NCBI GenBank assembly: GCA_963746775.1 | Contig: CAVVCK010000002.1 | Coordinates: 431,656 to 495,655 of the forward strand | Direction of reading: 5' to 3' | Source of the DNA: an uncultured bacterium | GTDB taxonomy: Bacteria; Patescibacteriota; JABMPQ01; CAVVCK01 | DNA length: 64,000 nucleotides | Shown here: one piece after another, positions 42,976-43,054 of the stretch | Position numbering within the stretch: the first letter of the stretch is position 1 | How the letters are laid out: every line of letters starts with the position of its first letter | The notes under the pieces: model-generated | What the model was told of the DNA's origin: nothing | Database searches by the model: none | Seen by the model: only the letters and a program-made list of their open reading frames with translations | Translations under genes and position numbers: made by a program

Positions 42976-43054
42976 CGATGCTAATATACTAATGCATACG
43001 AATCATACGAATGAATTATTAGTATAATTAGTATTCATTCGTATATTTGTATCG
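42976..43054. repeat. Family-C word hairpin (TACGAAT/ACTAAT words), copy C1, between rplF and rplR
   Basis: CGATGCTAATATACTAAT...TTAGTATTCATTCGTATATTTGTATCG. Inner 11-bp stem TACGAATGAAT/ATTCATTCGTA. Confidence 0.7.

Follow-up and report, generated by a model that had tools for sequence, protein, structure and literature searches.

Word-array hairpins in the ribosomal operons of a Parcubacteria-group bacterium: probable cargo-less copies of a GxxExxY-associated, IVS-like mobile element

Palindromic repeats that are co-transcribed with genes comprise Correia/NEMIS in Neisseria, ERIC/IRU and YPAL in enterobacteria, RUP/BOX in pneumococcus, and REP/BIME with the RAYT transposases, and the nature and spread of another kind of insertion, the rRNA intervening sequences (IVSs), has been a standing question since 1990. 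IVSs are selfish elements in helix 45 that are excised by RNase III and whose ORF is preceded by tandem heptamers (PMC4990558). It is also known that short insertions without an ORF abound at the IVS sites of CPR 23S genes (PMC11270868) and that IVS-protein genes, which encode four-helix bundles, have been found squeezed in among cas genes (PMC3936711). In the searchable literature IVSs are regarded as rRNA-specific curiosities with ORFs of no known function (PMC4990558, PMC11270868).

Here we describe three hairpins, C1, C2, and C3, from a 64,000-nt stretch of DNA, which as a whole is referred to as the window, of a Parcubacteria-group CPR bacterium whose closest named relatives are Parcubacteria-group MAGs. 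Quite probably, all three, of which C3 is decayed, belong to a GxxExxY-associated, IVS-like selfish mobile hairpin element of CPR/Patescibacteria, termed family C, as non-autonomous copies that lack the cargo. Like the 23S IVSs of Salmonella, Leptospira, Coxiella, and others the family combines an inverted-repeat stem with an optional small ORF and has a sporadic, selfish-type distribution, one copy even being located in the helix-45 loop, and the short words of its arms resemble the tandem GACAGAT heptamers ahead of the Coxiella IVS ORF (PMC4990558). Unlike 23S IVSs, however, C1-C3 and most other copies reside in mRNA junctions, the cargo is a GxxExxY PD-(D/E)XK nuclease and not a four-helix-bundle S23p/23S_rRNA_IVP protein, and the arms contain fixed mismatches. 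With repeats of the Correia/NEMIS type family C shares the multicopy, imperfectly palindromic nature (~80-150 nt), the position in transcribed intergenic DNA, the potential to fold in mRNA and the status as non-autonomous kin of a protein-coding element. It differs from them in that no target-site duplication was found, a small PD-(D/E)XK nuclease takes the place of a DDE or Y1 transposase, the arms are arrays of repeated 8-nt words, and conservation extends across phylum-level lineages and not just one genus. Free-standing homing endonuclease genes, GC clusters of yeast mitochondria and repetitive hairpin-forming elements of sponges (PMC2800124) also invade spacers or rRNA and leave expression intact, but involve another nuclease family and host range, whereas in family C nuclease gene and hairpin form one unit.

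The sequence-only reading had quoted conserved termini for C1 and C2, and these match exactly at the positions given in Table 1. As all genes in this region are located on the minus strand, the transcript bears the reverse complement of the strings quoted there. C1 and C2 are imperfect palindromes of ~80 nt whose arms contain four ATAC[G/T]AAT words each and whose ends read CGAT...ATCG. On the transcript strand the left arm of C1 reads CGATACAAAT-ATACGAAT-ga-ATACTAAT-t-ATACTAAT and leads into the loop, which is followed by the right arm, ATTCGTAT-g-ATTCGTAT-gc-ATTAGTAT-ATTAGCATCG. Both elements can form long hairpins on either strand (folding z = -3.9 to -5.6 versus shuffles). They share a 20-mer, TTAGTATTCATTCGTATATT, and an 18-mer, CGATRCTAATATACTAAT, whose observed counts were reached in 0 of 100 dinucleotide shuffles, i.e. 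the similarity of the termini stood up to the significance test proposed for it, and a word map of the 64-kb window contains only three clusters, which correspond to C1, C2, and C3. The view of C3 as a third copy can be upheld: the words are present and one terminus is preserved as CGATGCTAAT (plus strand ATTAGCATCG, 52847-52856), but the element is degenerate, with a decayed far terminus at about 52750-52759, and its fold is not significant versus shuffles (z = -1.7). In its interior the first word is followed by a nested mini-hairpin of 24 nt, CTCTCGAAAATACTCGAGAT, and then by three left-arm and three inverted right-arm words.

Table 1. Coordinates of the family-C hairpins and of neighbouring or related features in the window.
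Feature	Position	Strand	Remarks
C1	42976..43054	-	79-nt cargo-less family-C hairpin; absent at the same junction in relatives L119-L122
C2	55504..55585	-	82-nt cargo-less family-C hairpin
C3	52750..52856	-	decayed family-C copy, between Phd/YefM-like ORF and tuf promoter
rplF (L6)	43059..43598	-	upstream neighbour of C1
rplR (L18)	42578..42955	-	downstream neighbour of C1
rpsG (S7)	55587..56054	-	upstream neighbour of C2
fusA (EF-G)	53393..55498	-	downstream neighbour of C2
tuf promoter	52702..52729	-	sigma-70-type consensus TTGACA-16-TATAAT, 12/12 matches; directly downstream of C3; conserved in L119
Paralogous four-helix-bundle/23S_rRNA_IVP ORFs	24700-25466, 27479-27905	-	TIGR02436 (82 bits), PF05635; each within an inverted ACAA-word array

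C1 begins 4 nt after the stop codon of rplF and ends 21 nt ahead of the rplR ATG, taking up most of the 103 nt between the two genes, and C2 fills a gap of 88 nt, with 1 nt separating it from the stop codon of rpsG and 5 nt from the fusA ATG. In relatives with 79-80% identical L6 the element is missing from the L6/L18 junction, which is only 20 nt long in L119 and 29 nt in L120-L122. C1 is thus an insertion, and the family an inserted repeat family, as had been proposed from the sequence. The more general statement that the hairpins are insertions at normally short junctions is borne out for L6/L18 and probably also for C3, since the Phd-like ORF and tuf are 202 nt apart in the window versus 112 nt in L119, where the same promoter lies downstream. 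It does not simply apply to S7/EF-G, as this junction comprises 118-134 nt in relatives and holds a different repeat, the GGGGAG/CCCCTCC element, instead of C2; the S7/EF-G junction is an insertion hotspot. Two further junctions of the window that contain other word hairpins are short in L119, i.e. rplW/rplB (185 versus 14 nt) and rplN/rplX (127 versus 10 nt). Moreover, the Sm_multidrug_ex/tpiA junction carries a GAAATTGG-word hairpin in the window, a family-C copy in L119, and an ACAAG-word hairpin in L120, so that one orthologous junction hosts three word-hairpin families in three related genomes. The shortness of L6/L18 in the relatives and the presence of other hairpin families at the same junctions argue against C1-C3 being host regulatory RNAs.

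The GGGGAG/CCCCTCC element consists of three hairpins and is also present in the window (36960-37076, before the gene at 36219-36959); its counterparts at S7/EF-G of relatives are L204:3469-3602, L205:3469-3587, and L207:1363-1480. Likewise, at least three further word-hairpin families occupy gaps between co-directional genes of the window, those at rplW/rplB and rplN/rplX being missing in L119. Hairpins with ATCCGC words are located at 13828-13944, 45154-45280, and 50833-51111, hairpins with GAAATTAG/TAGAAAT words at 3996-4164, 35551-35685, 39108-39323, 48997-49181, about 56800-56920, and 62970-63163, and hairpins with ACAAA words at 34689-34764 and 37479-37644. Given several hairpins of the same style that are built from other words, family C is one case of a general habit of this genome.

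On the transcript strand, the left arm of family C has the layout CGAT[R]C[N]AAT, ATAC[K]AAT, 2 nt, ATAC[K]AAT, 1 nt, ATAC[K]AAT, followed by the loop and a right arm that mirrors the left one and ends with ATT[R]G[Y]ATCG. More generally, the two arms are arrays, in inverted orientation, of four or occasionally five 8-nt words AT[A/G]C[G/T/C]AAT with a period of 8-10 nt, and they enclose either a short variable loop, giving forms of 72-123 nt to which C1-C3 belong, or a gene for a GxxExxY protein of ~130 aa. The sequence-only reading had made its case dependent on additional copies elsewhere, and outside the source genome the family indeed turned out to be very large: a pattern of three consecutive words, scanned against one representative genome per GTDB species, matched at least 118 loci. 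About 60% of the matches listed belong to family C, agreeing in termini, word order, and spacers, and the remaining ~40% are unrelated tandem repeats. The copies listed come from dozens of CPR lineages, among them Jorgensen-, Staskawicz-, Azam-, Terry-, Doudna-, Zambryski-, Komeili-, Curtiss-, Magasanik-, and Taylorbacteria, Saccharibacteria, and other Patescibacteria, and the GC content of the host genomes listed ranges from 30 to 55%. In an alignment of 42 copies 34 columns are invariant, and C1 and C2 agree with the copies of other genomes column for column; loops are hypervariable, arms conserved. Copies are dispersed, with three in the window and elsewhere often two per 8-kb locus, and together with their terminal inverted repeats (CGAT...ATCG and the inverted word arrays) this corresponds to the makeup of a non-autonomous transposon. 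They also have the build of an IVS, i.e. an inverted-repeat stem (86% of the cells paired in the 42 copies) around a loop that may or may not contain a small ORF.

Two pairs of copies within one genome each (L105:3275-3364 and 4840-4930; L009:1151-1233 and 6890-6987) have identical right arms and different loops, and their left arms differ only at variable positions, i.e. the G/T word centres and the A/G at word position 3. A scan of the window at the Rfam gathering thresholds yielded no match to a known RNA family such as a ribosomal-protein autoregulatory leader, and a permissive scan of C1 up to E 10 returned just sub-threshold, miRNA-like hairpin noise. Phages were considered as vectors and dismissed, as a scan of viral contigs produced simple tandem repeats only and zero true copies.

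Family C prefers the junction between a stop and a start codon. In 23 cases among the matches listed clear ORFs are present on both sides, and here the element lies between co-directional genes. An upstream stop codon is evident in 21 of these 23 clean cases, the element following after 2-18 nt (usually 2-6) and the downstream ATG 5-34 nt (usually 5-16) behind the element. The family is not confined to ribosomal operons, as it also precedes tuf, dnaK (three times), recA, ssb, and trpS (downstream genes were named by eye from their first codons) and flanks rnc and rpmI-rplT. A search for target-site duplications, suggested along with the initial observation, came out negative: none of the 23 clean insertions is bordered by a direct repeat, nor is one recognisable when C1 is compared with the empty site, and no defined target motif was found at the insertion sites. 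C1 and C2 are located inside operons; the only consensus promoters nearby belong to rpsL (56708-56681) and tuf (Table 1). Neither a promoter nor a terminator function suits the two hairpins: terminator-like sites are absent at C1 and C2, and the sole promoter-like match, inside C2, scores 9/12, which is chance level. We also discarded a mini-ORF retained in empty copies, as an ATG after word 2, tallied by eye in 23 copies, occurs in 12/23 on each strand without orientation bias.

One family copy is located within an rRNA gene. In LSU rRNA, L042:145-233 occupies the loop at the tip of the helix that corresponds to Rfam model positions 1206-1226, i.e. the helix-45 region of 23S rRNA. It is the only rRNA-borne copy found and lies on a short contig labelled Rikenella, which is probably mis-binned. 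An IVS is by definition part of an rRNA gene, with helix 25 or helix 45 of 23S rRNA as its typical place, whereas C1-C3 are all positioned between protein-coding genes, and no GxxExxY cassette was found within rRNA among 20 metagenome loci scanned. Since helix 45 is the classical IVS site, this copy identifies the family as the same kind of thing as IVSs.

The long forms of the element (376-501 nt) have the same arms and enclose a gene. In L024, L026, L049, L087, and L103, where the copies measure 376-470 nt, an ORF of ~130 aa lies inside family arms and matches TIGR04256 at 68-71 bits (cut-off 35) as well as PF13366 PDDEXK_3. By these profile matches the cargo is a GxxExxY protein, i.e. a PD-(D/E)XK nuclease with a Cas4-like fold, and the catalytic Glu, Asp, and Glu-x-Lys (ExK) residues are invariant; a solved structural homologue of the family is not detectable by sequence. 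The cargo ATG lies within the left-arm words (ATGGATACTAATTATACTAAT, translated MDTNYTN), and the GxxExxY cassettes, too, are inserted stop-to-start between co-oriented host genes. C1 and C2 share the word arrays and the CGAT...ATCG termini with the arms of L024, L049, and L087; they thus combine forward NNC[G/T/A]AAT words, the reverse complements opposite and the termini of cargo copies. As the product encoded between the same arms in the long relatives, the GxxExxY PD-(D/E)XK nuclease is a putative mobilising enzyme, and since tblastn detected no GxxExxY gene in the 64-kb window, a mobilising enzyme within this genome is likewise putative.

The association also holds in the converse direction, when metagenome GxxExxY genes are chosen by protein similarity alone. 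Flanking inverted repeats are significant at about 70 of 76 genes selected in this way, and of 69 non-redundant loci counted 52 have three or more forward C[G/T/A]AAT words upstream and three or more reverse ones downstream. In the 69 loci CGAAT outnumbers its complement by 168 to 25 upstream, and ATTCG outnumbers CGAAT by 172 to 31 downstream. In Bacteroidota, TACGAAT words and their complements form long arrays on the flanks of GxxExxY genes (L063, L069, L076), and in GC-rich genomes the word variants CACGAAT, CGCGAAT, and TACAAAT are found. Polarised CGAAT-type arrays are thus a hallmark of the GxxExxY gene family, of which C1-C3 represent the cargo-less form. In one case, L129:149-649, a GxxExxY cassette is bordered by two nested sets of family-C arms, i.e. 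there is an element inside an element, which points to insertion of these elements into each other.

The two arms complement each other less well than expected. In the 42-copy alignment 86.1% of the cells pair, versus 88.2 +/- 0.5% after shuffling, and 500 of 500 shuffles gave a higher value. Unpaired cells cluster at the column pairs 7/99, 15/91, 26/80, 30/76, and 35/71; either allele can be found on either arm, the opposite arm then bearing the other allele, which results in G.A or U.C. The centres of word-unit 1 are complementary in 3/44 copies (15.8 expected, permutation P < 5e-5), those of unit 2 in 11/44 (19.4 expected, P 0.005), and those of unit 4 in 3/40 (15.0 expected, P 5e-5), and unit 3 is neutral in the same test. 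Pairing below chance does not fit a simple model in which a stem is selected to pair, and the anticorrelation implies that the arms interact in some form. Selection seems to favour the mismatches at fixed positions; they may be kept because perfect palindromes are unstable, because they regulate cutting by RNase III, or because the nuclease recognises them. As the longest uninterrupted stack does not exceed 13 bp in 42 of 44 copies, cleavage by RNase III, which removes IVSs from the transcript without re-ligation, cannot be assumed. An offset for the short loop is no explanation for the mismatches, since cargo-bearing copies show the same pattern. Selection of the sense-strand RNA was dismissed as well: there is no bias in favour of sense RNA (13 G.U versus 24 A.C on the sense strand), and in just 7 of 23 cases does the sense strand fold more stably than the antisense strand.

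The insertions are found in transcribed DNA at sites where a stem that folds on itself does little harm, i.e. at stop/start junctions and in the loop of helix 45. Once transcribed as part of a polycistronic mRNA, the two arms would pair with each other, which may free the A/U-rich start region of the next gene and draw stop and start codons together. Such self-folding in the transcript probably renders the hairpins harmless and keeps the flanking cistrons functional, which would explain the persistence of the empty members. A Shine-Dalgarno-like motif precedes only 3 of 65 genes of the window, A/T-rich tracts being found ahead of the starts, and translation initiation in the source genome appears to be SD-independent; loss of a Shine-Dalgarno motif through insertion is consequently irrelevant, and what the downstream gene needs is probably an unstructured A/U-rich start region, which the element leaves free. 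Like IVS stems (PMC4990558), the stem may be a substrate of RNase III. In analogy to the subterminal repeats of transposons, the mobilising machinery most likely recognises the conserved words, and the enzyme that acts in trans on empty copies is presumably the GxxExxY nuclease. Conservation of the words in empty copies across phyla could, on the other hand, also reflect a selected host function.

Three other explanations, i.e. a host signal, duplex-binding arrays, and landing pads, are less well supported than a selfish, IVS-like family. The hairpins might be RNAs that benefit the host, acting as operon-internal processing or stability signals of the REP or RNase III/RNase E-site type that tune ribosomal and housekeeping expression. 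Their position exactly between the cistrons of highly expressed operons, words that are strikingly conserved across lineages and GC contents and the thermodynamic significance of the folds are compatible with such a role, and ERIC and Correia/NEMIS elements are known to influence mRNA fate. Nevertheless, we regard this as unlikely, as presence and absence vary between genomes whose flanking proteins are 79-92% identical, sister genomes hold different families at the same junction, and the same element occurs in 23S rRNA and around a nuclease gene. Furthermore, wobble pairs lack a sense-strand bias and C3 is visibly decaying.

It is more improbable still that the words are protein-binding arrays of duplex DNA, i.e. 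iteron-like operators about one helical turn apart that are bound by a regulator or a nucleoid/partition factor, fold-back being incidental. Such arrays would account for a word conservation well beyond the needs of pairing, variable positions that coincide with the unpaired ones, the period of 8-10 bp and pairing of the arms below chance, but the anticorrelation between the arms implies an interaction that independent duplex sites would not show, the sites are found in operons and an rRNA helix instead of promoters, and arrays that flank a nuclease gene with fixed polarity correspond to the subterminal-repeat layout of mobile elements. Finally, the direction of events may be reversed, with the hairpin as primary element or resident landing pad, GxxExxY genes as secondary invaders that home into loops and empty copies as the ancestral state. 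Hypervariable loops next to conserved arms, the nested L129 element and junctions that are hotspots of mutual element replacement would be in line with this scenario. As the start codon of the ORF is made of arm words (ATGGATACTAAT...) and the ORF fills the loop exactly, ORF and arms rather seem to have co-evolved than the ORF to have entered a pre-existing loop, and we hold the reversed order to be very unlikely.

One sequence family occurs in mRNA junctions and in 23S helix 45, with and without cargo, and the word of the arms goes along with the cargo family in CPR, Bacteroidota, and GC-rich phyla alike. We put forward, as a serious but tentative possibility, that IVSs are one habitat of a broad, cross-phylum class of mobile cassettes, in which small genes, for a GxxExxY nuclease or a four-helix-bundle protein, or empty loops lie between inverted, cargo-specific word arrays and which insert wherever a self-folding stem is tolerated, i.e. 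at stop/start junctions and the tips of rRNA helices; the GxxExxY nuclease may recognise the CGAAT-type words or the mismatched hairpin and drive mobility, and the selected mismatches may serve this recognition or else evade RNase III or palindrome-instability control. In the searchable literature, covered with GxxExxY, PDDEXK_3, and the TIGRFAM/Pfam accessions, no description of hairpin arms was found, and neither word-array arms, the GxxExxY link and the stop/start habit nor the identity of mRNA and rRNA copies and the selected mismatches are described there. The family provides a concrete, testable candidate for the machinery of IVS mobility and may help to explain the IVS puzzle. It would account for the presence of GxxExxY and four-helix-bundle genes in unrelated operons, e.g. 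cas loci (PMC3936711), and cautions those who annotate CPR genomes against taking long 'intergenic' gaps of ribosomal operons for regulatory leaders, as these are probably selfish insertions. That selection seems to favour mismatches in a hairpin is itself unusual.

Cassettes of four-helix-bundle IVS proteins (TIGR02436/PF05635, Avd-like) resemble family C in that an ORF is embedded in an inverted word array in the gap between co-directional genes, but differ in cargo protein and words and have no nuclease motif. The two paralogous ORFs of this type in the window (Table 1) lie inside ACAA-word arrays, and the word type thus seems to follow the cargo type. In both, the same codon is replaced by a stop within the reading frame (TAG in one ORF, TAA in the other), at a position that is usually occupied by Gln in the family motif; they could be pseudogenes or contain a recoding signal.

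The window has several other features. At 5305-6073 there is a gene-free stretch of 769 nt with a GC-rich core of ~450 nt in a genome of 31% GC; it looks highly structured, lacks an Rfam match even at E = 0.1 and is a candidate for a large non-coding RNA. The class A RNase P RNA at 9425-9885 (minus strand) comprises 461 nt versus 367 positions of the model, i.e. it has ~90 nt of insertions. Between fusA and tuf an ORF of ~108 aa (109 aa in the window; 52862-53191, minus strand) encodes a protein with a weakly Phd/YefM antitoxin-like N-terminus and an acidic tail; no toxin partner gene is visible, and the ORF is kept at the same position in relatives (L119:958-1281, L205:5787-6116). A lone plus-strand ORF of 93 aa (33342-33623) is preceded by a strong GAGGAGG motif and is possibly foreign, the rest of the window being on the minus strand and without SD. 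In the spc operon two extra genes (41439-41930 and 40664-41377, minus strand), which follow rplR, are located between rpsE (41957-42562) and rplO and secY; by synteny with L119 and L120 they correspond to a DJ-1/PfpI-family gene and an unannotated ORF of ~237 aa.
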